From positions 161,570 through 225,569 of the forward strand of contig PEZY01000012.1 in assembly GCA_002773855.1 (NCBI GenBank): a stretch of 64,000 nucleotides of DNA, read 5' to 3'. Source of the stretch: Candidatus Buchananbacteria bacterium CG10_big_fil_rev_8_21_14_0_10_33_19. Lineage in GTDB: Bacteria; Patescibacteriota; Patescibacteriia; 2-01-FULL-39-33. The position numbers and the translations under genes were made by a program. Below are positions 6,005-34,362 of this stretch, piece after piece. Each line of letters begins with the position of its first letter. Within the stretch, counting starts at the first letter, position 1. The notes beneath the pieces are model-generated. The model was given only the letters and a program-made list of their open reading frames with translations, was not told where the DNA came from and made no database searches.

Positions 6005-6934
6005 ATGAAGTTTTTAGTAACTGGTGGCGCTGGCTTTATCGGCAGTAATTTGGTGGTTAAATTGATAGATATTGGCCATGAAGTGGTAGTAATTGATGAT
6101 TTATCTAGTGGTAATATTAAAAATCTTCAGCTAGTAATTGATCGGATAAAATTCGTTGAAGGTTCAATATTAGATTTAAATTTACTTAAAAAAGAGTTTA
6201 TAGGTATGGATTATGTACTTCATATGGCGGCCATGCCATCAGTGCCAAAATCAGTAGAGAAGCCACTAGAGACTAATGCGGCTAATATTGATGGTACTTT
6301 AAACGTTTTAATTGCTGCCAGAGATAGCGGTGTTAAGCGAGTGGTTTATGCCGCTTCCTCTTCTAGATATGGTAATTCGACAACAGATATTAAATCGGAA
6401 AGTTTACCAACTAAGCCTTTGTCACCTTATGCCTTGCAAAAATTTACTGGTGAAGAATATTGTCGAATTTTTTATAAAATTTACGGCTTGGAAACAGTGG
6501 CGACTATATTTTTTAATGTGTTTGGACCAAATCAAAATCCAGATTCGCCATACTCAGCTGTAATACCAAAGTTTATTAAATTAATGCTAAAAGGCGAGCG
6601 ACCAGTAATTTATGGTGATGGCCAAACTTCTCGTGATTTTACTTATGTTGATAATAATGTCAGTGCGGTTATTGCCGCTGCGACAGCTAAAGAGGCAGTG
6701 GGTCAATCAATTAATATTGCTTTGGGCGAATCTATTTCTTTAATTGAATTAGTTAAAAAAATAAATAAAATTTTAGGTACAAATATTGAACCACAATTTG
6801 AAGATTTTAGAACTGGTGATGTAAAGCATAGTTTAGCCGATATATCTTTAGCTAAAAAAGTGTTAGATTATCAAGTGGATGTAGATTTTAATAGTGGTTT
6901 GGAAAAAACAATTAATTTTTTAAGAAGTAATTAA
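6005..6934 (+). CDS. NAD-dependent sugar epimerase/dehydratase (extended SDR, UDP-sugar 4-epimerase-like)
   Basis: VTGGAGFIGSNL Rossmann motif. YAASSSRYG and YALQK (YxxxK) catalytic motifs. Confidence 0.8.
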   Translation: MKFLVTGGAGFIGSNLVVKLIDIGHEVVVIDDLSSGNIKNLQLVIDRIKFVEGSILDLNLLKKEFIGMDYVLHMAAMPSVPKSVEKPLETNAANIDGTLNVLIAARDSGVKRVVYAASSSRYGNSTTDIKSESLPTKPLSPYALQKFTGEEYCRIFYKIYGLETVATIFFNVFGPNQNPDSPYSAVIPKFIKLMLKGERPVIYGDGQTSRDFTYVDNNVSAVIAAATAKEAVGQSINIALGESISLIELVKKINKILGTNIEPQFEDFRTGDVKHSLADISLAKKVLDYQVDVDFNSGLEKTINFLRSN

Positions 6935-6942
6935 AATATTAT

Positions 6943-7797
6943 ATGGACAATATCAAGATTGGTTTTATTGGTCAGGGGTGGATTGGTAAAAATTATGCTG
7001 ATAATTTTGAGAACCGTGGTTACGAAGTAATTCGTTACGCCCTAGAAGAGCCCTATCTTAACAATAAAGAAAAAATTAAAGATTGTGACATTGTTTATAT
7101 CGCTGTGCCCACACCATCAACTCCTAAGGGTTTTGATAGCAGTATTGTACATGAAGCTATTAAACTAATTGGTGATGGCAAAGTGGCGGTAATTAAATCT
7201 ACTATTTTACCAGGTACTACAGAAACTATTCAAAAAGACTTTCCTAATGTTTTTGTCATGCATTCACCAGAATTTTTAACCGAGCGAACAGCCGCTTATG
7301 ATGTAGCTAATCCGGGTAGAAATTTGGTGGGTATCCCAATTGATAATGATGACTATAGGACAAAGGCTCAAGAAGTTTTAGATACTTTGCCATTAGCACC
7401 ATTGTCTAAAATTATTTCCGCCAAAGAAGCGGAACTGTTTAAATATATTAGGAATTGCTTTTTTTACACTAAAGTTATTTTTATGAATTTAGCTTATGAC
7501 TTGGCTCAGAAGAATGATTGTTCTTGGGAAACCATTCATACTATTATGAGTGCTGATCCTTGGATTGGTAATATGCATATTGATCCAGTTCACAAAAGTG
7601 GTCGGGGAGCCGGTGGACATTGTTTTATCAAAGACATGGCCGCTTTTGATGAGATGTATAAAAAATTAGTTGGCGATGAAGCTGGCCAGCAAGTTTTAAA
7701 AAGTTTACAAGCCAAAAATATTGAATTGTTGTTGTCTAGTCATAAAGATTTGGATTTACTGTCTGGGGTTTATGGCGAGGATATAATTAAAAAATAA
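6943..7797 (+). CDS. UDP-glucose/GDP-mannose dehydrogenase family protein (compact, 284 aa)
   Basis: N-terminal GFIGQGWIGK Rossmann. HSPEFLTERTAAYD resembles UDPGDH NPEFLREG. GGHCFIKD resembles the catalytic Cys region GGSCFPKD. Confidence 0.55.
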   Translation: MDNIKIGFIGQGWIGKNYADNFENRGYEVIRYALEEPYLNNKEKIKDCDIVYIAVPTPSTPKGFDSSIVHEAIKLIGDGKVAVIKSTILPGTTETIQKDFPNVFVMHSPEFLTERTAAYDVANPGRNLVGIPIDNDDYRTKAQEVLDTLPLAPLSKIISAKEAELFKYIRNCFFYTKVIFMNLAYDLAQKNDCSWETIHTIMSADPWIGNMHIDPVHKSGRGAGGHCFIKDMAAFDEMYKKLVGDEAGQQVLKSLQAKNIELLLSSHKDLDLLSGVYGEDIIKK

Positions 7798-7829: not shown

Positions 7830-8984
7830 ATGGAAAATAACAAGGTGAATGGCGTAGCCAGAGATGGTGGCCTGGGCCAAAAACCAAAAATTTTAATTTT
7901 CTCTTTAGCCTATCATCCTTTTGTAGGTGGGGCTGAAGTGGCTATCAAAGAAATTACTGATCGCTTGGGTGGTGATTTTGAGTTTGATATGGTGACCGCT
8001 AATTTAGATGGTCGTCAAAAGGCCACAGAAAAAATTGGCAATATTAATGTGCATAGAATTGGTAATGGTAAGTTGGGTAAATATTTATTTCCTTGTTTGG
8101 CTTATCGTTATTCTAAAAAACTTCAGGCTAAAAATAGTTATGATATGATCTGGGCGATGATGGCTAATCAGGCTGGCTGGGCAGCGATGCGATTTAAAAA
8201 GAAATTTCCAAAAGTAAAATATTTATTAAGTTTACAAGAAGGTGATAGTGAATGGGATATTTGGCTTAGAACTTTTTTTATTAGACCAATTTATAAATCT
8301 ATTTATCGCCGAGCGGACAAGATTCAGGCGATATCTAATTTTTTAAAGAATAGAGCAGTGAGATTGGGGGCTAAGGGTGATATTGTGGTGGTGCCCAATG
8401 GAGTTAAAGTCCAAAACGTAGAAATTAAAACGCAAAACTATAATTCAAAATTAAAACAAATAATCACTGTCTCTAGATTGGTGAAAAAAAATGGCGTAGC
8501 AGATTTAATTAAGGCTATGACTGATGTTAATGGCAAATTAATAATAATTGGTGATGGAAAATTAAAAAATAGCTTAGAGAGTTTGAGAAATAGATTAAAT
8601 CTAACTGACAAGATAGATTTTTGGGGAAAAATTGATAATCGTCAAGTTTATAATGCTTTAAGAGACACAACTGTTTTTGTACGTCCATCTTTAACCGAAG
8701 GATTAGGCAATGCCTTTTTGGAAGCGATGTCAGTCGGTGTACCAGTAGTCGGGACTAAAGTTGGTGGTATCCCTGATTTTTTGGAAGATAAAAAAACCGG
8801 TTATTTTTGTGAAGTAAAAAATCCCAAAAGCATTGCCAAAAAAATAAATTATATTTTAGCTGAAGAAAATAAGGCAGAGGTAGAGCAAGTTGTAGAAAAT
8901 GCTAAAAGATTAGTAGAAGATAGATATTCTTGGAATAGAATATATATTGATATTAAAAAAATTATAGATAAATTAATAAGTTAA
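7830..8984 (+). CDS. Glycosyltransferase family 4
   Basis: TEGLGNAFLEAMSVGVPVVGTKVGGIPDF GT4 C-terminal motif. Confidence 0.8.
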   Translation: MENNKVNGVARDGGLGQKPKILIFSLAYHPFVGGAEVAIKEITDRLGGDFEFDMVTANLDGRQKATEKIGNINVHRIGNGKLGKYLFPCLAYRYSKKLQAKNSYDMIWAMMANQAGWAAMRFKKKFPKVKYLLSLQEGDSEWDIWLRTFFIRPIYKSIYRRADKIQAISNFLKNRAVRLGAKGDIVVVPNGVKVQNVEIKTQNYNSKLKQIITVSRLVKKNGVADLIKAMTDVNGKLIIIGDGKLKNSLESLRNRLNLTDKIDFWGKIDNRQVYNALRDTTVFVRPSLTEGLGNAFLEAMSVGVPVVGTKVGGIPDFLEDKKTGYFCEVKNPKSIAKKINYILAEENKAEVEQVVENAKRLVEDRYSWNRIYIDIKKIIDKLIS

Positions 8985-8987: not shown

Positions 8988-11300
8988 ATGAAAATTCTAA
9001 TTACTGGCTCTGGTGGAATGTTGGGGAGCTCGATGATTCCAGTCTTAAGAGAGGAGGGGTACGATGTTTATCCGACAGATAAAAATCCAGTTGAGGGGAT
9101 TGAACTATTAGATGTTCGAGAATACGATCAGGTTTTGGCTTGGGCCAGTAGATTACAACCAGATTTTATATTTCATTTGGCAGCTGAGACAGATTTAGAA
9201 ATTTGCGAAAACGATCCAGAGTATGCTTATAGTACCAACACCATTGGTACTCAAAATGTGGCTTTGATTTGTAAAAAGTTGGGTATTAAAATGGTTTATA
9301 TTTGTACGGCGGGAATTTTTGATGGTAAAAAAGAAAGTTTTTATAATGAATTTGATGAAGCAATTCCTTTGTCGATTTATGGCAAAACAAAATTAGAAGG
9401 TGAAAAAATTGTTAAAGAAATGTTGCATGAGTATTTTGTGTGTCGTCCTGGTTGGATGGTGGGTGGTGGAGCTAAAGACAAAAAATTTGTTGGTCAAATT
9501 ATCAAACAAATTAGAGACGGTGCCAAAGAGTTGCATGCGGTTGATGATAAATTTGGCACCTCCACCTATACCAAAGATTTTTGTAAAAATTTAGCAGCTC
9601 TAATTAAGACCGAGCACTATGGTTTGTATCATATGGTGTCTCGTGGTTCAGCTAGTCGATATGATGTGGCCAAAGAAATTGTGAAAATTTTAAATCGCCC
9701 AGATATTACTGTTCATAGTGTCCACTCTGATTATTTTGCTAAGCGTTATCCAGTGACTCGGCCACGTTCGGAAATGTTGGATAATTTAATGTTGGATTTA
9801 CGGGGTTTAAATTTAATGCGTAATTGGCGAGAAATATTGCCAGAATATATTAATGAACATTTTTCTGATGTTATTTTAAAAAACGATATTAATAATATGG
9901 ACAACAGTGAATCAAAAAATAAAAAAAAGTTTATTGTCATTGGTGCTGGCCTCGCCGGACTATCTACGGCTTATAAGTTATTACAGCAAGGGGCTGATGT
10001 GACTATTTTAGAAAAGGCCAAGGAAGTGGGCGGACTAGCTAGAACTATTAAGTATAAGGATTATTATTTTGATTTTTCAGCTCATCGCTTTTCGGCAAGT
10101 AAAAAAGATTTGATTGAGGAAATGAAACAAATAATGGAAGGTAATTTTACTGTTCGCTCAAAAAGATCTCGAATATTGATGTGGAACAAGTGGCTTAATT
10201 ATCCATTTGAATTATTAGATTTGATGTTGCACATGCCTAAGTTGTTGGCTATTAGAGCGGTCTTGGATTATATTTATACTTTAATTAAAGAGAAAATAAA
10301 ACCGACTAAAATTGTTTCTTTTAAGGATTGGTTTATCGCTAGCTTTGGTTATACTTTATATAAAACAAATTGCGAGCCTTATGCTACTAAGCATTGGCGC
10401 ATTGATCCCGGACAAATTTCGTCAGAGTGGGGTGAAGCTCGTTCACCAGCTAGTTTTAATTTAAAAACCATTATTGCGGATTTGATTACCAAGAAATATG
10501 CTAATGAGTTGGGTGCCGATAATCCTTATCCAGATGCGGATAGCTTCTATTATCCCAAGACTGGTGGCGTTGGCTCTATTGCCAATCGTTTTGCAGATGA
10601 AATTAGAAACATGGGCGGCAAAATTTACACTGAAGCAGAAATTACCAAAATTGATTTGTCTGGTGACAAAGCAGTAGTGGAATTTAATAAATATGGCAAC
10701 AGTCAAAAAATTGAAGCCGACAAAGTAGTGTCGACAATTTCAGTTTATATTTTATCAAATTTAGTTACTCCAGCTGTACCAGAAGAAGTCAAGGCTAGAT
10801 TGTCAAAGTTAACATACCTGAATACTATTTTTATAAATGTAATAATTAATCGTCCAAAAATTAGTGATGATTCTTGGTTATACTTTCCACAACCATCAGA
10901 AGAAATTATTTTTAATCGAGCAGTCGAATTTAAGAATTGGAGCGAAGATATGGCACCAAAAGACAAAACTAGCTTATGTTTGGATATATCTTGTACTAGT
11001 AGTGAGAAAATATGGACAGAGGATAATGATGCAGATTTAATTGCTAAAGCTAAAGAAGGACTAGTGAGGTCAAAAATTATTTCTAGTGTTGATGAGGTAG
11101 AAGAAACTTTTGTATTGAAAATTCCTTTCACTTATCCAGTTTATGATTTGGGTTATATTGATAATTTGAGACCAGTTGTAGAATCACTAGAGAAAAATGA
11201 TAAGTTAAAATTAGTGGGGCGTATTGGTAAGTTTAGTTATTCTAATATGGATGACGTTATAGCCGATGGTTTTGCTTTGGCTAATGATTTAATGAAATAA
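8988..11300 (+). CDS. Bifunctional fusion: N-terminal RmlD-like NAD(P)H sugar reductase (SDR) plus C-terminal FAD-dependent Glf/UDP-galactopyranose-mutase-like flavoprotein
   Basis: N-terminus MKILITGSGGMLGSS ... YGKTKLEGE (RmlD-like). After a Lys-rich linker (NSESKNKKK), KKFIVIGAGLAGLSTAYKLL ... EKAKEVGGLARTI ... FSAHRF resembles the Glf FAD-binding N-terminus. There is no internal stop or start. Confidence 0.65.
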   Translation: MKILITGSGGMLGSSMIPVLREEGYDVYPTDKNPVEGIELLDVREYDQVLAWASRLQPDFIFHLAAETDLEICENDPEYAYSTNTIGTQNVALICKKLGIKMVYICTAGIFDGKKESFYNEFDEAIPLSIYGKTKLEGEKIVKEMLHEYFVCRPGWMVGGGAKDKKFVGQIIKQIRDGAKELHAVDDKFGTSTYTKDFCKNLAALIKTEHYGLYHMVSRGSASRYDVAKEIVKILNRPDITVHSVHSDYFAKRYPVTRPRSEMLDNLMLDLRGLNLMRNWREILPEYINEHFSDVILKNDINNMDNSESKNKKKFIVIGAGLAGLSTAYKLLQQGADVTILEKAKEVGGLARTIKYKDYYFDFSAHRFSASKKDLIEEMKQIMEGNFTVRSKRSRILMWNKWLNYPFELLDLMLHMPKLLAIRAVLDYIYTLIKEKIKPTKIVSFKDWFIASFGYTLYKTNCEPYATKHWRIDPGQISSEWGEARSPASFNLKTIIADLITKKYANELGADNPYPDADSFYYPKTGGVGSIANRFADEIRNMGGKIYTEAEITKIDLSGDKAVVEFNKYGNSQKIEADKVVSTISVYILSNLVTPAVPEEVKARLSKLTYLNTIFINVIINRPKISDDSWLYFPQPSEEIIFNRAVEFKNWSEDMAPKDKTSLCLDISCTSSEKIWTEDNDADLIAKAKEGLVRSKIISSVDEVEETFVLKIPFTYPVYDLGYIDNLRPVVESLEKNDKLKLVGRIGKFSYSNMDDVIADGFALANDLMK

Positions 11301-11302: not shown

Positions 11303-14300
11303 ATGATTAAAGGTTTAGTCAAAAAACATAAAGTAATAATAATAATTTTTTTGTTGTCTTTGTTTTTGCGACTACTAACCTTTGGGCTTCTAATTGATAA
11401 TTATGGCACCGGTAGTTTTTATTTGGCCAATAATACTGAAGTTTTAGATGGTAATGATACTCAGCATTATGTGATTATTGCCAGTAATATTTCTGAACAC
11501 GGAGTGTATTCTAGATTCATAAATGAACCGTTTGAACCAGATAGTTTGCGTACACCACTTTTGCCATTGTATTTTTTGCCGTTTATTCATTTTTTAGGAT
11601 TTAGCAGTGTTTGGCTAGCAATGTTATTATTAGTAATTATTTTGTCGGCGATACCGGTAGAAGCTTATTATTTGGCAAAATTATTTTTAAGTAACAAGCT
11701 TAGCTTGGTGGCGGGATTATTAGTGGCTTTGCAGCCACTAATGATTTACTTCACTAGTATTACCGAGCCCGATATGCTGATGATTTTTTTGTTCTTGCTA
11801 GTGATTTATCATTTTTGTCTTTATTATATTAATAATACTTCTAAGAATTTATTGTTGTCAGCTCTGCTGTTAGGATTAATGACTTTGGCTAAGCCAGTTG
11901 GTATTTATATCGCGGTCATCTTGGTGATTTTTGTGGCTTTAAAAATTATAAAAAATAAAAAAGTTTTTCTAAATTTATTTTTATTTATTTTTATTTTTGG
12001 TTTGATTATATCGCCCTGGTTGTATAGAAATTATCAAGTTTTTGGCACAGTAGATATTAGTGCTATTAAATCGACCAATCTATATTTGTATTATACTGTT
12101 GGTTTTGAAAAAAATAATGAAGTCTTGCCAGTTGATTTAGGTGAAAGACAGCCAGTTAAAAATATTAAATATCAAAAGGAGTATGTTAGCTTGGCTGTAG
12201 ATAGAATTTTAAATCAGCCGATAGCTTATACCATGCATCATTTAATTGGTACTCTAAGATCGATGTTAGCCGGTGATTTGCAAGAAATTTATCACAAGGG
12301 TCATTCTAATATTTTGCCGTTTAGCTTAGATTTAGAGGGTCGAGTAAATATAACCGACAGCCTACAGTCTGGTAAATTGCTAGTGGTTATAAAATCAATT
12401 TTATTGAATTTTAATTTGTTACTTAGATATTTAATTTTAACCATTCTTTATATTCTGGTAGCTTTTGGCTGGTTGATGTCGTATAAGAGTAATAAAAAAA
12501 CTTTTGTTTTGTTTACCATGTTTGGTGTTTTAATTGCTTATTTCTTTTTGTCTTCTGGACCGTTTGTTTCGCCAAAATATCGTTTGCCAATTATGCCACT
12601 CTTGTTAATTATGTCTTTATATACTTTTTCTAATATGAAAAAAAATAAAATTAATGACAAAAAAATAGTTATTGCATCGGGCACTTATTTACCAGAAATT
12701 TCTGGTCAGTCTACCTTTGTCGATAACTTCAAAAAAAATTTACCAGCTGATTATGAATTAGTAATTGTGGCCTATGGTAATAAAACCGAAGTGGTAAATA
12801 ATAATATTTATTATATTAAACGAAATATATTTAGACATCTTAATTATTATTTAACTATTAGAAATCAGGCCAAGGACGCAGTGATTATTTATGCTCAAGA
12901 TTTGGTGTCATCAGGCTTACCAGCAGCCTTGGCCAAAAGATCAAGTAATTATTTAGTTGTTCGTATTGGTGGTGATTTCTTGTGGGAGAAGATGGTAAAT
13001 ACTGGTAAGACCGAAGTGCCAATTAGTCAGTATTACCAGCAGCCAAAAAGTTTGTTAGAAAAACTTTATTTAAAATTATATCACTATGTTATAAATAAAA
13101 GTGATAAATTAATTTTTAATACACCCTGGCCACAGAAGTGGTATGCTGATTATTTTAATATTAGTATTAATAAAATTAGTGTGATTCAAAATCCGTTTAC
13201 TATTAATAATAAAATTGATGTAAATGATTCAGTAATTGGCGATGAAATTATTTATGCTGGTCGTTTTATACCGCTTAAAAATTTAGAAAGATTGATCGAA
13301 GCTTTTAAAAAAATAAAAACTGATAAAAAATTAGTAATTATTGGTGCTGGTCCACAATATAATGATTTACAAAAATTAGCCGCTAGCGATCAGCGAATTG
13401 CTATTGTTGATAAAATGAATCAGGCACAGTTATGGCAGAGAATTGCCAAATCTTATTTGTTTATTTTGCCAAGTATTTCTGAATTCAATCCTAACGTAGC
13501 TATTGAAGCTCTGAGTTTGCACAAACCAGTTATTTTAACTAAAGAGGTTGGCTTGTCTGATGATTTAAAAAGTAAGTTTGTTTTAGCTGATCCATTAAGT
13601 GTTGATAGTATTGAAAAACAAATTGAATATTTATTGAATGGTGAAAATTATAAAAACTTTTTAGATAATTTGTCTATCGGCGATTTGTCTTATGATTGGT
13701 CAAAGGTGATGAGTGAGCATATTGAGGTGTTTAACTCTATTATTAATCAAATAAATGTATTAAATATTGGCACTGACAGAGGTTTAGCTGGCGGTAAAAA
13801 ATTAGGAGATGCTATAGCTAGACATCGAGCTTATGGCGAACACGTAGATAACTTAGATATCATCACTTATTCTAGTAGTAGAGATAATTTACTTGGCCTT
13901 AAAATATCGGATAATGTTACAGGCTATGCTACTAATTCGCTATTTAAAATATTTTTTGTATTTGATGTTATTAAAATATTTAGAAAAATAAATAAGCAAC
14001 ATAAAATTAATATCGTTGTTTGTCAGGATCCTTTTGTACCAGCTTTGGCCGGATTATTTTTAAAAATATTTTATCATGTTAAATTACAAATTAATTTTCA
14101 TGGTGATTTTTGGCAGAACAAAAATTGGCTTAAGGAAAATCCAATTAATTTTATATTTTTGTTAATATCAAAATTTACTGTTCCCTTTGCTGATGCTATT
14201 AGAGTGATGAGTGATGGTCAAAAATTAAAGTTAGGTTCTTATGCTAAAAAAGCTAGGGTGATATCAACACCAGTAGATATTAAAAAAATTTTAGATTCTA

Positions 14301-14884
14301 GTCAGACAGTGAGTTCAGAAGGGGCCTTGATGGTTTTGCATGTTGGTCGAGATGATAAAGTTAAGGATTATGATACTTTACTAAAAAGCTGGAATATAAT
14401 AAATACTGATTTAAATACTGATAAGAAAAAAAGAGTGATGTTTTATCAGTCTGGGGCTGATCAAGAATTAGATAAGGCTAAAGCCGCTTTAGGTCAAGCT
14501 GGTTTGGATATCAATATTATTAAGTTGGGGCGCAAGGATCATGATTCATTAATTAAATATTATAATCAGGCTAATGTAGTCATGTTGTCTTCCACTTCTG
14601 AAAGTTTTGGTAAAGTGTTAATAGAGGCTAGTGCCGCTGGTAAGCCGGTGGTATCAACCTCTACCACTGGCGCTAAAGAGATTATAGTTGATCAAAAAAA
14701 TGGTTATCTGGTGCCAATTGGTGACGCCAATGGTTTGGCCGAGAAAATTATTTATTTATTAGAAAATAGTGATAAGGCTAAGGCTATGGGCGAGACTGGT
14801 AGGGAAATGGTTGTAAAAAAATATGGTCATAACACTGAAAAAATTATTAAACTTTGGCAAGATATTATAAAAAATAATATATGA
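11303..14884 (+). CDS. Tri-domain protein: N-terminal polytopic GT-C-like membrane domain (~440 aa) plus two tandem GT4 domains
   Basis: About 12 TM segments at the N-terminus. The middle domain begins MKKNKINDKKIVIASGTYLPEISGQ, which is GT4 N-terminus-like. The C-terminal domain ESFGKVLIEASAAGKPVVSTSTTGAKEIIVDQKNGYLV is a GT4 motif. Confidence 0.65.
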   Translation: MIKGLVKKHKVIIIIFLLSLFLRLLTFGLLIDNYGTGSFYLANNTEVLDGNDTQHYVIIASNISEHGVYSRFINEPFEPDSLRTPLLPLYFLPFIHFLGFSSVWLAMLLLVIILSAIPVEAYYLAKLFLSNKLSLVAGLLVALQPLMIYFTSITEPDMLMIFLFLLVIYHFCLYYINNTSKNLLLSALLLGLMTLAKPVGIYIAVILVIFVALKIIKNKKVFLNLFLFIFIFGLIISPWLYRNYQVFGTVDISAIKSTNLYLYYTVGFEKNNEVLPVDLGERQPVKNIKYQKEYVSLAVDRILNQPIAYTMHHLIGTLRSMLAGDLQEIYHKGHSNILPFSLDLEGRVNITDSLQSGKLLVVIKSILLNFNLLLRYLILTILYILVAFGWLMSYKSNKKTFVLFTMFGVLIAYFFLSSGPFVSPKYRLPIMPLLLIMSLYTFSNMKKNKINDKKIVIASGTYLPEISGQSTFVDNFKKNLPADYELVIVAYGNKTEVVNNNIYYIKRNIFRHLNYYLTIRNQAKDAVIIYAQDLVSSGLPAALAKRSSNYLVVRIGGDFLWEKMVNTGKTEVPISQYYQQPKSLLEKLYLKLYHYVINKSDKLIFNTPWPQKWYADYFNISINKISVIQNPFTINNKIDVNDSVIGDEIIYAGRFIPLKNLERLIEAFKKIKTDKKLVIIGAGPQYNDLQKLAASDQRIAIVDKMNQAQLWQRIAKSYLFILPSISEFNPNVAIEALSLHKPVILTKEVGLSDDLKSKFVLADPLSVDSIEKQIEYLLNGENYKNFLDNLSIGDLSYDWSKVMSEHIEVFNSIINQINVLNIGTDRGLAGGKKLGDAIARHRAYGEHVDNLDIITYSSSRDNLLGLKISDNVTGYATNSLFKIFFVFDVIKIFRKINKQHKINIVVCQDPFVPALAGLFLKIFYHVKLQINFHGDFWQNKNWLKENPINFIFLLISKFTVPFADAIRVMSDGQKLKLGSYAKKARVISTPVDIKKILDSSQTVSSEGALMVLHVGRDDKVKDYDTLLKSWNIINTDLNTDKKKRVMFYQSGADQELDKAKAALGQAGLDINIIKLGRKDHDSLIKYYNQANVVMLSSTSESFGKVLIEASAAGKPVVSTSTTGAKEIIVDQKNGYLVPIGDANGLAEKIIYLLENSDKAKAMGETGREMVVKKYGHNTEKIIKLWQDIIKNNI

Positions 14885-18677: not shown

Positions 18678-19829
18678 ATGAAATTGCTCTACATTGCTAA
18701 TATTAGAATACCCACCGAAAAAGCTCATGGTCACCAAATAATGACTATGGGTGAAGCTTTTAGTCTGCAAGGAGTGGATACTATTTTGGTGGTGCCGAGC
18801 AGAAAGAATAATGATTTTAAAAATGTTAATCCGTTTGATTTTTATGAAATCAAGAAAAATTTTAAACTTAAAAAAATATTAACTATTGATCCGGTATTAT
18901 TATTAAAATTTCCAGCTGGTATATATATTAAGGTTCAGTCTATAATATTTATGTTTTTTTTGAGTTGGTATTTTCTGTTTATAAATAGAGGAGACTATAC
19001 TGTTTATACTCGAGATGAGTATTTATTACCATTTTTACAAATATTTTTTAAGCGAGTAGTCTGGGAAGCTCATGCCTTGCCTAATAATTTAAACAAGTAC
19101 AGAAAATATTTGAATCGCTGTTACAAGGTTATAGTTTTAACTTCTGAGATTAAAAAACAATTGACTAAATTAGGCATAAATGGTAATAAGGTTCTAGTGT
19201 CTCCGGATGCAGTAGACTTGTCTATATTTGATATTGATATAGATAAACAAGAGGCTCGTCAGTCTTTAAAGTTACCTGCTAATAAAATTTTACTAGGCTA
19301 TACTGGCAGTTTTAAAACCAAGGACATGGATAAGGGGATTAGCGACATATTAAAAGCCTTAAAAAAATTACCAGACAATATTCTATTAGTGGCTATAGGT
19401 GGTAGTGATATTGATATCGAATTTTATAAAAACATAGCCAAGAGTTTGAACATAGAAAATAGAGTGATCTGGGTTAAAAAAGTTGATCAAAAAACATTGG
19501 CAGTGTATCAAAAATCTTTTGATGTATTGTTGATGCCTTTTCCATACACTAAGCACTATGCTTATTATATGTCACCACTTAAAATGTTTGAATACATGGC
19601 ATCGAAAAGGCCAATTGTGGCCTCTAATTTGCCGACTATTAAAGAAGTTCTAAATGAGAATAATTGTATTTTTTGTCGACCAGATGATAACGCTGATTTA
19701 GCTAATAAGATAAATATATTAATAAGTAATAGTGATTTAGCTGCCAAACTTTCTAACCAGGCTTATTTGGATGTTAAAAATTATACTTGGAATAATCGAG
19801 CAAAATTAATAATTGATTTTATAAGTTAA
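18678..19829 (+). CDS. Glycosyltransferase family 4
   Basis: GT-B C-terminal motif SPLKMFEYMASKRPIVASNLPTIKEV. Confidence 0.7.
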   Translation: MKLLYIANIRIPTEKAHGHQIMTMGEAFSLQGVDTILVVPSRKNNDFKNVNPFDFYEIKKNFKLKKILTIDPVLLLKFPAGIYIKVQSIIFMFFLSWYFLFINRGDYTVYTRDEYLLPFLQIFFKRVVWEAHALPNNLNKYRKYLNRCYKVIVLTSEIKKQLTKLGINGNKVLVSPDAVDLSIFDIDIDKQEARQSLKLPANKILLGYTGSFKTKDMDKGISDILKALKKLPDNILLVAIGGSDIDIEFYKNIAKSLNIENRVIWVKKVDQKTLAVYQKSFDVLLMPFPYTKHYAYYMSPLKMFEYMASKRPIVASNLPTIKEVLNENNCIFCRPDDNADLANKINILISNSDLAAKLSNQAYLDVKNYTWNNRAKLIIDFIS

Positions 19830-22681
19830 TGGACACTAGTAAATTGATCAGAAAAATAAAAAGATTTATAAAAATAAGGCGAACAATATTATTGTACAGC
19901 ACAATAATATTATTTTTGTTATTTTTATTCTTGGCAGTTTATGTGGGAAAAGTATATCTAACAGATGGTAAAACAGGTTTAATTAGAACGCCAATTGGCA
20001 GAGCTATATTGGCACCGTATAGATCAATGCGAAAAATGTCAGATATTATGTATCTTGGCTATGCTTTTAAAAAGAATAACTTACCAAAATATAGATTAGA
20101 AATTAATCCCAATGATTTTAAGTTTTTAAACGATAATTTGCCAGAGCCATATCAAGATGATAGACAAAGCCGTTTAACCGATGAATATCGCAAGCCGGTA
20201 CCAGCGAAATTTTATTTTGATGGTCGTGAGTATAAAGTAAAAGTTAACTATCGTGGCTATGTTGGTAATCATTGGTCTAATGCTAAAAAATCATGGGACA
20301 TAAAATTTGATGATGAAAATTTATTTAATGGTTTAACTAGTATTAAATTAATTATTCCAGAGGACAGGGGAATTGTGGCTGAATATATGAATCAATATCG
20401 AGCCAATAAACTGGGGTTGTATCCACTGTTTAGTTCTTACACTACTTTAGTAGTTAATGGTAGAAACAATGGGGTTTATTTTCAGGTTGAGCCTTGGGAT
20501 GAAAGTTATTTGGCCAAGCATGAATTAATAGACCAAACAGATATGTTCGCTTTTTATGAAGATTGGAATAGAAGTGATCGTTATAGTGATTCATTCGAAA
20601 TGTTATCTTATTATGACAAGAAAGCTGATAATCCATTTTATAATTATAAAAATTATGCACCATTAAATTATGTTTTTGATTTGATAAATGATTACTCTAC
20701 CGATTTTGAGGAAAAAATTTCTAATGTTGTTGATATGAATCAGTTTTTAAATTGGCAGGCCGTACATATGTTAATGTCTAGTCCTCATAATCTTTATAGA
20801 AATATTAGATTATTTACTGATAGAGAGACAGGGAAATTGGTTTTTGTGCCGTGGGATGTTGGCTTTACTGAGCCTAGTACTAGCTTAGAAATAAATAGCT
20901 CTAGTTTGTATAATCGTATTTTTATGTCTGACAAATTTTCTTATCAAAGAAACAAAATTCTTTGGAATTACGTTGGTAATGAGGATAATTTAAAAGATGA
21001 TTTAAAATACTATGATGATTCATTTAATAATATTAAAGTAGCTTTGGCTCAAGATCATTTGAAAGTTTATAGTACTAAGTGGTTTTTTAATGAAAATAAA
21101 AAAATCAGACAAGACATTGAAGATAATTTTTATAAAGTTAGAAATATTTTAAAAAATACTAGAGCCTCTATTAGTGTTTATATGTCTGATGATAATCCAA
21201 CTTATTTTGATGTGACAGCTGATATGCTACCAGAGATTGTTTTGGATAAAGTGAGGATCTATTCACCAGAGAACGTTGCTTATAAAATATATTTTGATTC
21301 CAATCATAATAATGAATTTGATATCACGGATGTACTAGCAGGAACTTCCAGTTATGATCTTAATAAAAAATATCACTTAATATTATCTGATAGAAATATT
21401 ATTCTGTCAGCGGCCAAAAAATTAGCTAATGATAATATTAGTTTTGAATATTTTCCAAAAACTTACAGATTTTTTATTCAGTCTAGCGGTTCAGGTAAAG
21501 TAGAAAAAATTAAAATTCAAGTAGATAATGCCATCACTGATAAAAAGGTTGATGATAGAATTCAGTACATTAGTTTAGATGCCTATAAATATTTATCACA
21601 AAAGAATATTTCTATTGATGAGTTTGTAGCAAAATTTCCCATCTTTAGAAAAATAGATAACAACACCGTTGAACTTTATAGAGGTAGTTATAATTTGAAT
21701 ACCGACGTTATCATTCCAGTTGGTAAAAAATTAATTATTAATCCAGGGGTGACGATTAATTTATCTAAAGGAGTATCATTAATAACCTATGGTCCAATTT
21801 TAGCTTCTGGTACGGTTGATAGTCCTATAGTTTTTTCTGGTTATGATGCTTGGGGGTCTGTAGGTATATCTGAGGCCCAGGAAAAAAGTGTTTTTGATCA
21901 TGTTAAATTTAGCAATGGTCAGGATGCTTTAGTTAATGGTGTTTATTATAGCGGTATGTTATCGGTTTATAGGTCTGATGTGGAAATTAATAATTCAGAA
22001 TTTTCTAAGGCACAAGCTGATGATGCAATAAATGTTAAACATGCTAAAGTTTTAATTCATAATTCTGTTTTCTATAATAATTCAGCTGATTCAATTGATC
22101 TTGATTTTATTTCTGATGGCCAGATTAAGAATAATGTATTTTTGAATACTGGTAATGATTCTATGGATTTGAGTGGCTCATCGGTTTTAATAGAGGGTAA
22201 TAAAATTAAAAATTCTGGTGATAAGGGAATTAGTATTGGTGAAAAATCAAATAATGTAATTATTTATAATAATGAAATAATTGCTAATAATATTGGTATC
22301 GAGTCTAAAGATTTATCGCAGGTCTGGACTATTAATAATGTGCTTATTAATAATGGCACCGCTGTTAATGCTTACCAGAAAAAGGGAATATTCGGCGGCG
22401 GTATGCTAGTTGTTTATAATTCTATATTTTATAAAAATGATTTAAATATTAATTTTGATGAATTATCGAAAATAGAAGTATTTAATAGTAATATCGCTGA
22501 TTATTCTGTTGAAAATGGTAATTTTATCGGTGATCCGGAGTTTATTAATGAAAGAGAGGAAAACTTTACAAATAACCCTAAAAATGTTAATATTTCCTTT
22601 ATTAATAGTGGTAATACGGATATTTTAAGTGATAAATTGAATATCAATGTTGAACAGGTGCCTGTTGGTCTAAATAAGTAA
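19829..22681 (+). CDS. Large membrane-anchored CotH-like kinase family protein with C-terminal right-handed beta-helix (pectate-lyase-like) repeat domain
   Basis: N-terminal TM anchor. The central region VVNGRNNGVYFQVEPWDESYLAKHEL ... FAFYEDWN is CotH-like. The C-terminal ~300 aa hold repeated N-x-V/I-x-x-N-S-x-D motifs (NNSADSIDLD, NTGNDSMDLSG, NSGDKGISIG). Confidence 0.5.
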   Translation: MDTSKLIRKIKRFIKIRRTILLYSTIILFLLFLFLAVYVGKVYLTDGKTGLIRTPIGRAILAPYRSMRKMSDIMYLGYAFKKNNLPKYRLEINPNDFKFLNDNLPEPYQDDRQSRLTDEYRKPVPAKFYFDGREYKVKVNYRGYVGNHWSNAKKSWDIKFDDENLFNGLTSIKLIIPEDRGIVAEYMNQYRANKLGLYPLFSSYTTLVVNGRNNGVYFQVEPWDESYLAKHELIDQTDMFAFYEDWNRSDRYSDSFEMLSYYDKKADNPFYNYKNYAPLNYVFDLINDYSTDFEEKISNVVDMNQFLNWQAVHMLMSSPHNLYRNIRLFTDRETGKLVFVPWDVGFTEPSTSLEINSSSLYNRIFMSDKFSYQRNKILWNYVGNEDNLKDDLKYYDDSFNNIKVALAQDHLKVYSTKWFFNENKKIRQDIEDNFYKVRNILKNTRASISVYMSDDNPTYFDVTADMLPEIVLDKVRIYSPENVAYKIYFDSNHNNEFDITDVLAGTSSYDLNKKYHLILSDRNIILSAAKKLANDNISFEYFPKTYRFFIQSSGSGKVEKIKIQVDNAITDKKVDDRIQYISLDAYKYLSQKNISIDEFVAKFPIFRKIDNNTVELYRGSYNLNTDVIIPVGKKLIINPGVTINLSKGVSLITYGPILASGTVDSPIVFSGYDAWGSVGISEAQEKSVFDHVKFSNGQDALVNGVYYSGMLSVYRSDVEINNSEFSKAQADDAINVKHAKVLIHNSVFYNNSADSIDLDFISDGQIKNNVFLNTGNDSMDLSGSSVLIEGNKIKNSGDKGISIGEKSNNVIIYNNEIIANNIGIESKDLSQVWTINNVLINNGTAVNAYQKKGIFGGGMLVVYNSIFYKNDLNINFDELSKIEVFNSNIADYSVENGNFIGDPEFINEREENFTNNPKNVNISFINSGNTDILSDKLNINVEQVPVGLNK

Positions 22682-22682
22682 T

Positions 22683-23432
22683 ATGGTTAAACCAAAACTA
22701 CATTTTCAAAGGTTTGAATTTAAATATTATCTACCTAAGAATACGGCAGATAAGTTAATTCCAACACTTTTGAATTACATGAACTGGGATAGCTATATCC
22801 AAAATACTGGCAGGGATTATTACGAGGTTAATAGTTTGTACTTTGATACTTATAATTTTGATTGTTTTTGGGATAAGGAAGCTGGGGTGTCCAATAGAAA
22901 AAAACTTAGGTTTAGATTTTATGGCCATGACTTATTACCAGAGACGCCAGTTTTTTTGGAGATAAAACAAAAGAATAATGTTTTAGTAACCAAAGATCGA
23001 GTTAAGTTGAAAATGTCAGATTGTGTAAATGAAAATTTGGATTCAGCTTTAATGTCTAATTACGGCAATAATAATGATAAATTTTTAGATAGTTTATTTT
23101 TATTTAAAAATACTAATTTCCTAAAACCCAAACTTTATATCTCCTATAAACGTAAAGCATTGGTTGGCAAGCACGATGATCGTTTTAGAGTGACCTTTGA
23201 TTATGATATTAAAACTAAGTTATCAAGTGATATTAAAGATGGCACCTCTAGTTTAAAGGATGTTTACTTTGATGGCGTTGTTTTAGAGTTAAAATATAAT
23301 AATATTTTACCATCATGGTTTCACGGGATTATTCAATCATATCAACTTGATCGCATAGCTTATTCTAAATATTGTAATTCCTTAAGAATGTGTTTACCAA
23401 ACTTAGACGATAATAATTATTCATTAAGATAA
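22683..23432 (+). CDS. VTC-domain (polyphosphate-polymerase-like/CYTH-like) protein
   Basis: N-terminal FQRFEFKYYLP and internal NSLYFDT motifs typical of bacterial VTC-domain proteins. Confidence 0.6.
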   Translation: MVKPKLHFQRFEFKYYLPKNTADKLIPTLLNYMNWDSYIQNTGRDYYEVNSLYFDTYNFDCFWDKEAGVSNRKKLRFRFYGHDLLPETPVFLEIKQKNNVLVTKDRVKLKMSDCVNENLDSALMSNYGNNNDKFLDSLFLFKNTNFLKPKLYISYKRKALVGKHDDRFRVTFDYDIKTKLSSDIKDGTSSLKDVYFDGVVLELKYNNILPSWFHGIIQSYQLDRIAYSKYCNSLRMCLPNLDDNNYSLR

Positions 23433-23436
23433 AAAA

Positions 23437-24123
23437 ATGTTAGAAAATTTAATAGAACTGCCAAAAATAGTGACCACACTTACTGTATCAACAATTGTAT
23501 TTAATATTGTCTTGGCCTTTGTTCTGTCTTTGATTATAGCTATAGTATATAGAAACACTCACAAAGGCTTGTCGTATTCACAATCATTCACTTTTACCTT
23601 GGTTTTAATTGGTATGTTAATTGCGGTTATTATGATGGTTATTGGCAATAGTTTGGCTATTGCTTTCGGCGCTTTCGGCGCTTTTTCTTTGATTAGATTT
23701 AGAACTGCAATTAAGGATACTAAGGATTTATCATTTATATTACTAGTAGTTTCAATTGGTTTAGCTGTTGGTACTAATAATTATTTAATTGCTATAATTG
23801 TTGCTTTGTTGTCTAGTATCTTTATTTATTTAATGTCTAAATTTAATTTCGGTTCAATTAGAAAATATGACTACTTGCTTAACTTCTCTGCTAATCATGA
23901 AGAATTTTCTAATAACAGGATGAGAGAGATATTTGATGATTTTTTGAAATACGATAATCTATTAAATGTAGTCTCTCATGATAATGGTAGATTATTAGAT
24001 TATAGTTTTAATATTAAATTTATTAAAGAAGACAGTGTTAGTATTTTTGTGGAACGCTTAAGTAAAATGAATGGTGTAAAAAGTGTTAATATTGTAGCTG
24101 CTAAAAATGATATTGAGTATTAG
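23437..24123 (+). CDS. DUF4956-like membrane protein (conserved partner of CotH/VTC)
   Basis: N-terminal ~140 aa with 4 TM segments plus soluble C-terminal domain. The position downstream of the VTC gene matches the known CotH-VTC-DUF4956 neighbourhood. Confidence 0.45.
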   Translation: MLENLIELPKIVTTLTVSTIVFNIVLAFVLSLIIAIVYRNTHKGLSYSQSFTFTLVLIGMLIAVIMMVIGNSLAIAFGAFGAFSLIRFRTAIKDTKDLSFILLVVSIGLAVGTNNYLIAIIVALLSSIFIYLMSKFNFGSIRKYDYLLNFSANHEEFSNNRMREIFDDFLKYDNLLNVVSHDNGRLLDYSFNIKFIKEDSVSIFVERLSKMNGVKSVNIVAAKNDIEY

Positions 24124-32781: not shown

Positions 32782-34362
32782 ATGAATTACAAAGTATGTA
32801 TTTTGGCTGCAGGAGTTGGGAGTCGAATGGGAGAATTATCAAATCATGTTAATAAGGCAATTTTACCGGTTAAGTTTAAGGCCGTTATTTCATATATAGT
32901 AGAAAAGTTTTCCGAAAATGTTGAGATAATAGTGGCTGTTGGTCATAAAAGTGATACAGTTATTAATTATTTAACTTTGGCTTATCCTAATCGAAAATTT
33001 ACTTATGTCGAGGTTGATAAATATATGGGTCCAGGTACTGGACCAGGTTATTCTTTGTTGCAGTGTAAAGATAGTTTGCAATCACCATTTATTTTCTTTG
33101 CGGCTGATACTATCGTTTTAGAGGATATTCCAATACCAGATCATAATTGGTTTGGCATAGCACCAGTTAAAGAGACTGAGCCTTATTGTACAATTAAGAT
33201 TAAAAATAATTTGGTCTATCAATTAGATGATAAAATTAAAACCGATAATAAGTTTGCTTTTATTGGTTTAGCTGGTGTTAAGGACTTTGAAGATTTTTTT
33301 GATTCCTTAGAAAAAAATAAAGAAATTGCTAGTGGTGAAATTCAAGTTTCCAATGGTTTTAGAGCCCTAGTGTCAAAAGAATTGAAACCGGTCGGCTTTA
33401 CTTGGTTTGATACTGGTACTATGGAAAGTTATCAAAAAGTTAATAAGAATTTTTCTGGCCAAGCCGAGAAGTTTGATTTTTCTAAAGGTGATGAGTTTTT
33501 ATATTTTGTAGAAAATAGAGTGATCAAATTTTTTGCTGATGAGTCAATAGTTAAAAATAGATATTTTAGATCTAAAAACTCGCTAAAGGGTTTGTGTCCT
33601 GATGTTTTAGAGCCATTAGGAAATTTTTATGCTTATGACAAAATTGATGGCCAAGTATTGTACAATGTTATGAATTCTCAGATTGTTAATGATTTTTTGG
33701 AATGGGCTAGGATAAATATTTGGCAAGAAAATAAGCTGAGCGATGAAGATAAAAAGATTTTTAATGATGCTTGTCATAAGTTTTATTATGATAAAACTAT
33801 GAAGCGAATAGAGTTGGCACAAAATAAGTTGGGAATTATAGATGGTCAGAATGTTATTAATGGTTTAGCTGTGCCTAGCTTAAGCGAATTACTATCAAAA
33901 ATAGATTGGGCTAATATAGAAAGTGGTGTGTCATGTAATTTTCATGGTGATTTACAGTTTGATAATATACTAGTAACTCGTGATAAAATCAGTAATTTAA
34001 ATAAATTTGTACTATTAGATTGGCGTCAGGATTTTGGTGGTTTAAATACATCAGGTGATTTATATTATGATTTAGCTAAGCTTTATGGTGGTTTAACTAT
34101 GTCTTATCAGTTAATTAAGGATGGTATGTTTGATTTTGATAGAAGTGGTGAAAGTGTTTATTATAATTTTTATATTAAGAGTGATTTATTAGAGGCTAAA
34201 GAGGAATATGAAAAGTTTTTGATTAAAAATAATTTTGATTTGAAAAAAATTAAAATTATGACAGCTTTAATATTTTTTAATATGTCACCATTACATCATG
34301 ATCCGTTTGATGTGATGTTATATTTTTTGGGTAAAAATATGTTACATAAATTGTTAAAGTAA
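32782..34362 (+). CDS. Bifunctional sugar-1-phosphate nucleotidyltransferase (N-terminal) plus APH/choline-kinase-like sugar kinase (C-terminal)
   Basis: ILAAGVGSRMG nucleotidyltransferase G-x-G-x-R motif. C-terminal HGDLQFDNILV (Brenner motif) and LLDWRQDFG. Confidence 0.7.
   Translation: MNYKVCILAAGVGSRMGELSNHVNKAILPVKFKAVISYIVEKFSENVEIIVAVGHKSDTVINYLTLAYPNRKFTYVEVDKYMGPGTGPGYSLLQCKDSLQSPFIFFAADTIVLEDIPIPDHNWFGIAPVKETEPYCTIKIKNNLVYQLDDKIKTDNKFAFIGLAGVKDFEDFFDSLEKNKEIASGEIQVSNGFRALVSKELKPVGFTWFDTGTMESYQKVNKNFSGQAEKFDFSKGDEFLYFVENRVIKFFADESIVKNRYFRSKNSLKGLCPDVLEPLGNFYAYDKIDGQVLYNVMNSQIVNDFLEWARINIWQENKLSDEDKKIFNDACHKFYYDKTMKRIELAQNKLGIIDGQNVINGLAVPSLSELLSKIDWANIESGVSCNFHGDLQFDNILVTRDKISNLNKFVLLDWRQDFGGLNTSGDLYYDLAKLYGGLTMSYQLIKDGMFDFDRSGESVYYNFYIKSDLLEAKEEYEKFLIKNNFDLKKIKIMTALIFFNMSPLHHDPFDVMLYFLGKNMLHKLLK

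Follow-up and report, generated by a model that had tools for sequence, protein, structure and literature searches.

A recurrent fusion of an RmlD-like reductase and a UGM-like flavoprotein in Patescibacteria is a candidate bifunctional NDP-4-keto-sugar reductase and pyranose-to-furanose mutase

In a 64,000-nucleotide stretch of contig PEZY01000012.1 (positions 161,570 to 225,569 of the forward strand; hereafter the window) from Candidatus Buchananbacteria bacterium CG10_big_fil_rev_8_21_14_0_10_33_19, a single gene encodes a 770-amino-acid (aa) protein that joins an RmlD-type reductase of the extended short-chain dehydrogenase/reductase (SDR) family to a flavin adenine dinucleotide (FAD)-binding domain of the uridine diphosphate (UDP)-galactopyranose mutase (UGM) superfamily. 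We propose, as a reading that is reasonably probable, that this protein is a bifunctional nucleoside diphosphate (NDP)-4-keto-sugar reductase and pyranose-to-furanose mutase. The proposal is built on direct observations, namely the identities of the two domains, the conservation of their catalytic residues, the recurrence of the fusion, and the split gene pairs and operon contexts found in relatives. The chemistry is of a known kind; what is new is the fused architecture and the assignment to this chemistry of a large unannotated protein family. Below, L numbers denote sequence contexts of relatives and P numbers denote proteins.

One reading frame encodes two complete domains

The open reading frame (ORF) starts with ATG and, stop codon included, is laid out as follows:

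8988-11300, plus strand: complete fusion ORF, RmlD-like reductase, linker and UGM-like flavoprotein (ORF list, Pfam, NCBIfam)
8988-9857, plus strand: N-terminal RmlD-family extended-SDR domain, aa 1-290 (Pfam RmlD_sub_bind)
9879-9926, plus strand: basic, variable inter-domain linker, about aa 298-313, ending LKNDINNMDNSESKNKK (model confidence, fusion alignment)
9921-9928, plus strand: A8 homopolymer, coding for part of the linker KKK (sequence)
9927-11297, plus strand: C-terminal FAD domain, aa ~314-770, UGM superfamily of pyranose-furanose mutases, family PRK07208 (NCBIfam, PDB, AlphaFold2 (AF2))

Pfam analysis of the 770-aa protein matched RmlD_sub_bind (PF04321) to aa 1-290 with 206.8 bits (E 4.9e-61; cut-off 27), the match spanning positions 1-284 of the 287-position profile, followed by NAD_binding_8 at aa 317-372 and Amino_oxidase (PF01593), a superfamily-wide model, at aa 322-676 with 102.9 bits. 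A frame of 770 codons in which two domain models match over their full length (E 1e-29 to 1e-61) is well past chance at the 31 % G+C of the window DNA. These results bear out the initial annotation, which from the letters alone had described a single ORF linking an RmlD-type SDR to a FAD domain through a Lys-rich segment. The A8 tract it noted within the linker is indeed there, preceded by an A6 run at 9914-9919, both in NNMDNSESKNKKKF, and every element of the GxGxxG...E...GG...T...AHxF pattern it listed can be read from the translation (G319/G321/G324, E342, G348-G349, T353 and A365-H366-R367-F368). In a full-length AlphaFold model (predicted local distance difference test score, pLDDT, 91.7) both domains are well folded, and the pLDDT falls below 50 in the linker at aa 303-307.

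The fusion is a genuine, recurrent gene

The identical protein (P0001, labelled by NCBI 'FAD-dependent oxidoreductase [Candidatus Falkowbacteria bacterium]') has been recorded on 13 contigs of assemblies from NCBI, JGI, ENA and Logan, and at least 19 further full-length homologues of 765-837 aa share its architecture at 49-89 % identity and about 100 % query coverage. Among GTDB genomes, scanned at one per species, five have a fused ORF of 737-797 aa. Linkers differ in sequence and length among the fusions, with the reading frame retained. At the three junctions read at the DNA level (L001, L003 and L005) the A8 tract is absent, there being no run of six or more or A6 only, and the frame is continuous. 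Runs of eight or more A are common at this G+C content, and the window holds 17 of them.

The initial annotation had raised the A8 tract as a possible frameshift site. That a one-base assembly or sequencing error within it merged two neighbouring genes gains some appeal from the position of the junction on the tract, from the nearest unfused relatives, which are overlapping genes that one base change could join, and from an in-frame ATG (Met304, 9897-9899) standing before the FAD domain; however, we give this practically no credence and consider it ruled out, because diverged fusions have continuous, A8-free junctions, the same protein recurs on 13 contigs from four repositories and fused ORFs are present in five GTDB genomes, while an A7 or A9 would stop translation at aa 338 or 330 and leave no start codon suitably placed to restore the FAD domain. 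The fusion is a genuine recurrent single gene in Candidate Phyla Radiation (CPR) bacteria, or Patescibacteria. As to Met304, it lies 10 codons ahead of the first β-strand of the FAD domain and a linker Met is found also in P0002 and in no other fusion; the ATG may be what is left of an earlier start codon of the mutase, or may act as an internal start.

Among the 150 best matches listed from a representative library of 1.84 billion sequences, the fused architecture is seen in P0019 (the representative of a 50 %-identity cluster) and P0279 only, and each half alone is common. Public sequences of the fusion are labelled only 'FAD-dependent oxidoreductase' or 'dTDP-4-dehydrorhamnose reductase' (dTDP, deoxythymidine diphosphate). 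Two fusion-carrying metagenome-assembled genomes, L016 and L020, are titled 'uncultured Gammaproteobacteria bacterium', probably a mislabelled bin; the other carriers with a stated lineage are Patescibacteria/CPR, and one is titled only 'bacterium'.

Split gene pairs and a second fusion lineage link the two halves

Gene context was read across the 64-kb window and in flanks of 10 kb on either side in relatives. The closest unfused homologues of the mutase domain are preceded by a gene for an RmlD-like SDR, with gene ends overlapping by 17-43 nucleotides (nt). The SDR of L009 is 52 % identical to the N-terminal domain (E 1e-104; 23-nt overlap with the mutase gene) and that of L015 32 % identical (E 4e-51; 43-nt overlap), and it is in these two loci, where the comparison was made, that the SDR belongs to the same subfamily. 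On the contig of P0091 an RmlD-like SDR gene overlaps the start of the mutase gene, and five more GTDB genomes, from Peribacteria, Peregrinibacteria and Woesearchaeota, carry the split pair (L021, L022, L023, L026 and L027). Another GTDB genome, L025, was likewise grouped with the overlapping unfused pairs.

A putative 4-ketoreductase and a putative flavin mutase are encoded together either as one chain or as adjacent genes, the SDR-then-mutase order with overlapping ends being found in at least eight unfused loci of CPR bacteria and DPANN archaea. Split pairs and fusion form a Rosetta-stone pattern that links both halves. The occurrence of the pair in Peribacteria and Peregrinibacteria as well as in Woesearchaeota suggests transfer or common ancestry between ultra-small bacteria and archaea.

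Two contexts place such proteins next to deoxysugar genes. In the archaeal L023, rmlA (TIGR01207, 254 bits; 47 % identity to E. coli RfbA) lies next to the split pair, as does the start of rmlB (top match TIGR01181; 51 % identity to E. coli RfbB). These four genes make up an island with housekeeping genes on either side. P0279 (locus at 5758-10175 in L011/L012), which is 724 aa long, represents a second RmlD and UGM-like fusion lineage. It is found on 19 contigs, is collinear with the query at 26 % identity, and is the last gene of a tight operon in which it follows a glucose-1-phosphate cytidylyltransferase (305 bits, cut-off 300), a cytidine diphosphate (CDP)-glucose 4,6-dehydratase (444 bits, cut-off 278) and an FdtA-family cupin. 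The reductase-then-mutase logic put forward in the initial annotation is backed by all three contexts: the overlapping pairs, L023 and the P0279 operon. The C-terminal domain of P0279 has no equivalent of the query's Asn753 and probably has Lys in place of Arg485.

The N-terminal domain is an RmlD-family reductase

The best PDB matches of the N-terminal domain are dTDP-4-dehydrorhamnose reductases (5u9c, 1e-48; 3sc6, 8e-46; 1vl0, 6e-45), and the domain is 25 % identical to E. coli RfbD over its full length (E 5e-30). Two sets of functional residues were located:

9006-9026, plus strand: NAD(P)H-binding glycine motif G7-S-G-G10-M-L-G13 (GxxGxxG), with G7, G10 and G13 kept in 19-20 of 20 fusions (translation)
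9306-9392, plus strand: SDR catalytic T107 (in CTAGIFDG) and Y131-G-K-T-K135 (YxxxK) (alignment to solved RmlD chains)

Thr107 is conserved in 19 of the 20 fusions, and Tyr131 and Lys135 in all of them. The domain resembles RmlD (E. coli RfbD; PDB 1kbz, 3sc6, 1vl0 and 5u9c) in its full-length RmlD_sub_bind match, its glycine motif and its Thr/Tyr/Lys triad, and the alignments support its assignment as an RmlD-family reductase in which glycine motif and triad are intact. Among solved RmlDs, 5u9c alone shares with it the motifs AAETD and GWM(I/V)GGG..KD.KFVG. The closest stand-alone homologue of the domain, P0168, lies on a short contig with little gene context. More distant RmlD-like relatives (27-35 % identity; P0065, P0068-P0071, P0075 and P0077) are fused to RmlC.

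The C-terminal domain belongs to the UGM superfamily

Single-sequence phmmer searches of PDB with the C-terminal domain recovered the UGMs of Aspergillus fumigatus (3.6e-24) and Trypanosoma cruzi (2.5e-18) over the entire domain. With a profile of 107 family members these matches rose to 7e-57 and 2e-53, with bacterial UGMs at 1e-20 to 4e-26, and 27 distinct UGM sequences ranked above the first non-UGM, a protoporphyrinogen oxidase at 3.5e-19. An hhalign comparison of the family with E. coli K-12 Glf gave 99.2 % probability over 358 columns. The AF2 model of the isolated domain (pLDDT 93.5; predicted template modelling score, pTM, 0.92) has the three-domain UGM fold: the top 34 Foldseek matches in PDB are all UGMs (template modelling score, TM, 0.81-0.85, and 0.84 to the A. 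fumigatus and T. cruzi enzymes; E ~1e-34), followed by protoporphyrinogen oxidase (TM 0.78, E 1e-29).

The functional motifs of the superfamily are present throughout the domain:

9942-9959, plus strand: FAD dinucleotide-binding motif G319-A-G-L-A-G324, with the three Gly kept in 106-107 of 107 family members
10071-10091, plus strand: UGM 'histidine loop' D362-F-S-A-H366-R-F, with H366 invariant (107 of 107)
10440-10442, plus strand: R485, counterpart of Arg182 in the mobile loop of A. fumigatus UGM (Arg174 of Klebsiella pneumoniae UGM), kept in 107 of 107
10875-10940, plus strand: active-site strand W630-L-Y632-F-P ... F-N-R644-A-V-E647-F-K-N650-W (alignment to A. fumigatus UGM)
11133-11252, plus strand: C-terminal UGM motifs Y716-P and G744-R745-x-G-x-F-x-Y751-x-N753-M-D755 (alignments)

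Glu342 (in ILE342) and Gly348-Gly349 are, like the glycines of the FAD motif, kept in 106-107 of the 107 members. By phmmer and hhalign, His366 aligns with His63 of A. fumigatus UGM and His56 of E. coli Glf. Trp630, Tyr632 and Arg644, which match W315, Y317 and R327 of the A. fumigatus enzyme, are kept in 107, 103 and 104 members, respectively, and the C-terminal motifs align with its Y419, R447, Y453 and N457 and with Y311, R340, Y346 and D348/M349 of E. coli Glf. PMC3322874 tabulates 20 UGM active-site positions; we checked 12 of these, and all 12 are kept in 103-107 of the 107 members:

A. fumigatus UGM His63: query H366
A. fumigatus UGM Tyr162: query Y465
A. fumigatus UGM Trp167: query W470
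A. fumigatus UGM Arg182: query R485
A. fumigatus UGM Trp315: query W630
A. fumigatus UGM Tyr317: query Y632
A. fumigatus UGM Arg327: query R644
A. fumigatus UGM Glu373: query D666 (D or E in the family)
A. fumigatus UGM Tyr419: query Y716
A. fumigatus UGM Arg447: query R745
A. fumigatus UGM Tyr453: query Y751
A. fumigatus UGM Asn457: query N753

In characterised UGMs the histidine loop sits over the flavin (His63 in A. fumigatus, His60 in K. pneumoniae, His56 in E. coli Glf), two essential arginines hold the diphosphate and the sugar (Arg182/Arg327 in A. fumigatus, Arg174/Arg280 in K. pneumoniae; the A. fumigatus R327A variant is inactive) and A. fumigatus Asn457 contacts O3 and O4 of galactose (PMC3322874). 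The WLYFP motif containing Trp315 and Tyr317 has been described as absent from prokaryotic UGMs (PMC3322874). The family to which the query belongs mixes the two branches, combining the eukaryotic-type WLYFP with a prokaryotic-type Met at the position of A. fumigatus Gln458. The domain is also shorter, at about 460 aa against 510, and lacks the inserts of eukaryotic UGMs. The query is thus like UGMs (bacterial Glf and the A. fumigatus and T. cruzi enzymes) in fold, FAD motifs, histidine loop, both essential arginines, the phosphate-binding Tyr/Arg cluster and the sugar-binding Asn, and unlike them in being only 21-23 % identical and in its fusion to a reductase.

Profile ranking, fold ranking and UGM-specific residues together rule out a generic amine oxidase or protoporphyrinogen oxidase, an outcome that the initial annotation had named as one that would undo its reading; the score with TIGR00562 is 60, under the cut-off of 97.85. 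Profiles and models support the view that the domain is a UGM-superfamily mutase, closest to the eukaryotic type and forming a distinct family and not a Glf orthologue. Its substrate is probably other than UDP-galactopyranose.

The best NCBIfam model for the domain is PRK07208. The family is large, and 273 matches at E<=1e-15 are mostly stand-alone proteins of 465-495 aa, with source labels that include Planctomycetota, Spirochaetes, Deltaproteobacteria, Glassbacteria, Solirubrobacteraceae and CPR. In the query, by contrast, the domain is part of a fusion.

Proposed mechanism and known two-enzyme pathways

Reduction followed by ring contraction has precedents in which the two steps are carried out by separate proteins. 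In E. coli O52, according to work ascribed to Wang et al. 2008 (Mol Microbiol 70:1358; cited in PMC7685785), dTDP-D-fucofuranose is reportedly made by the dTDP-4-keto-6-deoxyglucose reductase Fcf1 and the Glf-like mutase Fcf2. The two-step logic is the same, and the position of the L023 pair beside rmlA and rmlB fits a dTDP route; in contrast to the query, the O52 enzymes are encoded by separate genes, and Fcf2 is a classical bacterial Glf homologue, whereas the C-terminal domain described here falls in the eukaryote-like PRK07208 branch. In Campylobacter HS:41, CDP-fucofuranose and CDP-6-deoxy-altrofuranose are produced by an NADPH-dependent C4-reductase and then by a separate mutase that uses reduced FAD (PMC12369002). 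By description, HS41.18 and HS41.17 follow the order proposed here, reduction of an NDP-4-keto-6-deoxyhexose and then FADH2-dependent ring contraction, and the enzymes upstream of them (glucose-1-phosphate cytidylyltransferase, CDP-glucose 4,6-dehydratase and cupin) match those of the P0279 operon. The HS:41 system differs from the query in comprising two proteins in place of one polypeptide and in having the upstream genes that are missing from the window; moreover, the provisional UniProt annotation of HS41.18 is nucleotidyl-sugar dehydratase, while the N-terminal domain of the query is RmlD-type.

On this model, the N-terminal domain would act on an NDP-4-keto-sugar, whose keto group it would reduce with NAD(P)H and Thr107/Tyr131/Lys135. 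An NDP-4-keto-6-deoxyhexose is the most likely substrate; a nucleotidyltransferase and a 4,6-dehydratase encoded elsewhere in the genome would supply it, perhaps along with a cupin epimerase or isomerase, and reduction would yield an NDP-pyranose with a newly formed C4 hydroxyl. In the tethered C-terminal domain, with its FAD reduced, flavin N5 would then attack C1 and displace NDP, the ring would open as a flavin iminium, O4 would reclose it as a furanose and NDP would return. The product would be an NDP-6-deoxyhexofuranose, for example of D-fucofuranose or 6-deoxy-L-altrofuranose, with NDP-L-arabinofuranose less likely. Neighbouring enzymes of glycosyltransferase families 4 (GT4) and 2 (GT2) and of the GT-C type would build the sugar into a surface glycan, and the downstream transferases would pull the unfavourable equilibrium. 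Because the equilibrium between the two ring forms lies on the pyranose side, physical linkage of the mutase with the enzyme supplying its substrate, and translation of both along with the transferases, would offer a plausible selective reason for the fusion. We infer the sequential coupling of the two steps, the identity of the sugar and of the nucleotide, and any channelling between the domains.

Weighing the proposal

Several observations weigh against the proposed two-step enzyme, and we collect them here. The first concern the family assignments. With TIGR01214, the rmlD equivalog model, the N-terminal domain scores 202.8 bits, under the cut-off of 224.05, which rules out an RmlD orthologue proper. 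The canonical STDYVF that follows the catalytic Thr in 3sc6, 1vl0 and E. coli RfbD reads CTAGIF in the query (Ala108 in all 20 fusions, Gly109 in 19) and S-S-S-N-V-F in 5u9c; together with the motifs shared with 5u9c, this suggests a distinct sugar pocket. Besides this segment and the TIGR01214 score, the domain differs from RmlD in carrying a C-terminal fusion and in having none of the associated rmlA, rmlB and rmlC genes within the 64-kb window. As for the C-terminal domain, its 292 bits with PRK07208.1-4, a 'hypothetical protein' model, fall short of the family cut-off of 389, and it scores 51.7 bits, over the N-terminal half only, with TIGR00031, the curated bacterial Glf (UDP-GALP_mutase) model, whose cut-off is 303.75. 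A bacterial Glf orthologue is excluded by this last score. The 'Glf-like' label of the initial annotation holds in so far as profile, fold and residues all establish a UGM relationship, but the relationship is more distant than that label implied. GLF (PF03275), one of the Pfam families it had named, is not among the 25 best families listed for the 770-aa protein, where Amino_oxidase and NAD_binding_8 matched instead, nor does it appear in the precomputed Pfam assignments of the full-length fusion homologues; some stand-alone relatives have a precomputed PF03275 match and no other. Literature searches on PRK07208, 5U9C, UGM in CPR bacteria and fusions of RmlD with a mutase yielded no relevant paper, and no characterised PRK07208 member was found in them.

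The second group concerns gene context. No convincing 4,6-dehydratase, RmlA/cytidylyltransferase or RmlC/FdtA gene was found in the 64-kb window with Pfam, NCBIfam or tblastn using E. coli K-12 and L011 seeds, and the same genes are absent from the ~20-kb contexts of the other fusions of the query's lineage (lineage 1). The three other SDRs of the window were considered as 4,6-dehydratases and set aside: all are without the T-D-E motif and look like epimerases. With no pathway genes near the fusion, the 4-keto substrate would need a source in another part of the genome, or would be a different kind of compound, for instance a UDP-4-keto-pentose. Conserved close to the fusion there is instead a TviC-like SDR 4-epimerase paired with a 284-aa NDP-sugar dehydrogenase-like protein (window 6005-7797; L001 5459-7599), a pair that points to uronic-acid and not deoxysugar chemistry. 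The dehydrogenase-like protein is without the C-terminal UDP-binding domain and part of the N-terminal domain; since its length is the same in the window and in L001, this is not a truncation artefact.

Finally, some observations question the coupling of the two halves. The RmlD-like subfamily, at 39-52 % identity to the N-terminal domain, is fused in other CPR proteins to GT4 plus DUF1972, to GT2 or to a methyltransferase (P0022-P0037, P0032, P0042 and P0053), and to judge from these fusions it may be a general-purpose, promiscuous reductase module. P0040, a distant stand-alone mutase homologue (31 % identity), is paired with a GalE-like epimerase, the ordinary pairing of UDP-galactose and UDP-galactofuranose metabolism. 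In the full-length AlphaFold model, which has a pTM of only 0.67 and a disordered linker, no fixed inter-domain interface or tunnel is predicted. The channelling that the initial annotation had envisaged finds no support from a fixed domain contact in this model and would amount to proximity at most.

The strongest competitor, which we consider unlikely but worth keeping in view, is that one chain carries two independent activities: the RmlD-like domain would finish an ordinary deoxysugar such as dTDP-L-rhamnose, the mutase would convert another donor (for example UDP-galactopyranose to UDP-galactofuranose, or UDP-L-arabinopyranose to UDP-L-arabinofuranose), and the fusion would serve co-expression in a streamlined genome. 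The alternative fusions of the reductase module, the flexible linker with its low pTM, the GalE-like pairing of the distant homologue and the absence of a dehydratase near lineage-1 fusions all speak for it, as does the retention in the mutase of the Asn equivalent to A. fumigatus N457, which binds the sugar. Against it, the overlapping gene order is kept in at least eight unfused loci, specifically with an RmlD-like SDR, a collinear fusion only 26 % identical to the query ends a CDP-6-deoxyhexose operon, and the characterised precedents are reductases followed by mutases (PMC12369002).

A more far-reaching version of the proposal is that the fusion makes a furanose donor new to nature, for example dTDP-L-rhamnofuranose or 6-deoxy-L-talofuranose, and that PRK07208 is a second, eukaryote-like mutase branch. 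Known members of the RmlD lineage reduce L-configured 4-keto sugars and, coupled with the apparently remodelled sugar pocket, this lineage could give rise to such a product; we regard this version as improbable.

We think it quite improbable that the two domains act as a redox pair catalysing net epimerisation, in which the flavin domain would oxidise a hydroxyl and the SDR would reduce the resulting ketone from the other face, in the manner of DprE1/DprE2, although those enzymes are unrelated in fold. A FAD enzyme beside an NAD(P)H enzyme is a natural redox couple, PRK07208 is uncharacterised, and both the Amino_oxidase match and the fold likeness to protoporphyrinogen oxidase leave room for an oxidase. 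However, the residues specific to UGM chemistry and to binding of the NDP-sugar diphosphate are invariant (histidine loop, both Arg, Tyr/Arg cluster, WLYFP and GR..Y.NMD), the UGM profile score beats that of any oxidase by about 37 orders of magnitude, and the flavin of UGM acts as a nucleophile with no net redox change (PMC3322874; PMC12369002).

Still harder to sustain is a role in which the SDR domain draws on NAD(P)H to hold the FAD of the attached mutase in its reduced state. Reduced flavin is a requirement of bacterial UGMs, whose physiological reductant is unclear. Only the reduced-flavin form of UGM-type mutases is active (PMC3322874; PMC12369002), and NAD(P)H is bound by eukaryotic UGMs, which are the closest solved relatives (PDB 5vwt and 5vwu are among the Foldseek matches); yet the SDR domain retains the whole RmlD substrate-binding domain and the catalytic triad, no predicted interface would bring nicotinamide to the flavin, and in the split pairs, L011 and L023 it occupies the place of the pathway reductase. 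This last role is very doubtful, and the coupled reductase and mutase remains our preferred reading.

The fusion lies in a glycan-assembly cluster

The fusion gene is tightly enclosed by two conserved neighbours:

7830-8984, plus strand: GT4 glycosyltransferase, separated from the downstream fusion by a 3-nt gap (Pfam)
11303-14884, plus strand: 1193-aa protein with PMT_2 (GT-C, membrane) and two GT4 domains, 2-nt gap downstream of the fusion (Pfam)

The upstream GT4 recurs in L001 and L003, and an ORF of similar size abuts the fusion in L016-L019. PMT_2 and GT4 fusions with a single GT4 domain (823-828 aa) lie directly downstream in L003 and one radical-SAM (S-adenosylmethionine) gene further on in L001. 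The PMT_2 protein with two GT4 domains is the likely user of the product of the fusion. The surrounding ~30 kb form a glycan-assembly cluster with genes for a Wzy_C ligase, GT4 and GT2 enzymes, an SDR epimerase, a flippase and a deacetylase.

About 21 kb from the fusion, a weak nucleoside triphosphate (NTP)-transferase ORF (32782-34362) encodes 526 aa, with a weak match to a sugar-1-phosphate nucleotidyltransferase domain at the N terminus; a 131-aa cupin of the phosphomannose isomerase (PMI) type (35367-35762) and a weak class-II-aldolase-like ORF complete the 32782-35762 block. This block, which precedes a second block of GT4 and methyltransferase genes, holds the sole candidate nucleotide-sugar activation gene found in the window.

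B12-binding and other radical-SAM enzymes, together with SAM-dependent methyltransferases, recur beside the fusions of relatives (L001 12316-13728, L002 3163-4593, L005 2546-3610, L006 7071-8474 and the ends of L011) and may C- or O-methylate the sugar. No such gene adjoins the fusion in the window. At the end of the glycosyltransferase run, 19829-24123 encodes a 950-aa CotH kinase and right-handed β-helix protein followed by VTC-domain and DUF4956 proteins. In the 2-kb block of the window with the highest G+C content (37 %), a CrtO/CrtI-like flavoprotein of the phytoene-desaturase family (62876-64000) runs past the window end; apart from the FAD Rossmann motif it has no relationship to the mutase.

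Implications for PRK07208 and for furanose sugars in uncultured microbes

The fusion and its split relatives provide strong guilt-by-association evidence that PRK07208 proteins are NDP-sugar pyranose-furanose mutases acting on the product of a 4-ketoreductase. PRK07208 is widespread and its members are labelled 'hypothetical', 'FAD-dependent oxidoreductase' or 'protoporphyrinogen oxidase'. The finding suggests that furanose deoxysugars are present on the surfaces of CPR bacteria and DPANN archaea. Such sugars do not occur in animals and are often antigenic or relevant as drug targets. NDP-furanoses are difficult to prepare, and one polypeptide that turns a 4-keto sugar nucleotide into a furanosyl donor would, if the proposal is true, have practical value as a biocatalyst. 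The combination of a eukaryotic feature (WLYFP) with prokaryotic UGM features in one family bears on the origin of eukaryotic UGMs. Should PRK07208 indeed be a second mutase branch, it would mean a hidden diversity of furanoses in uncultured microbes, across many bacterial phyla and DPANN archaea.

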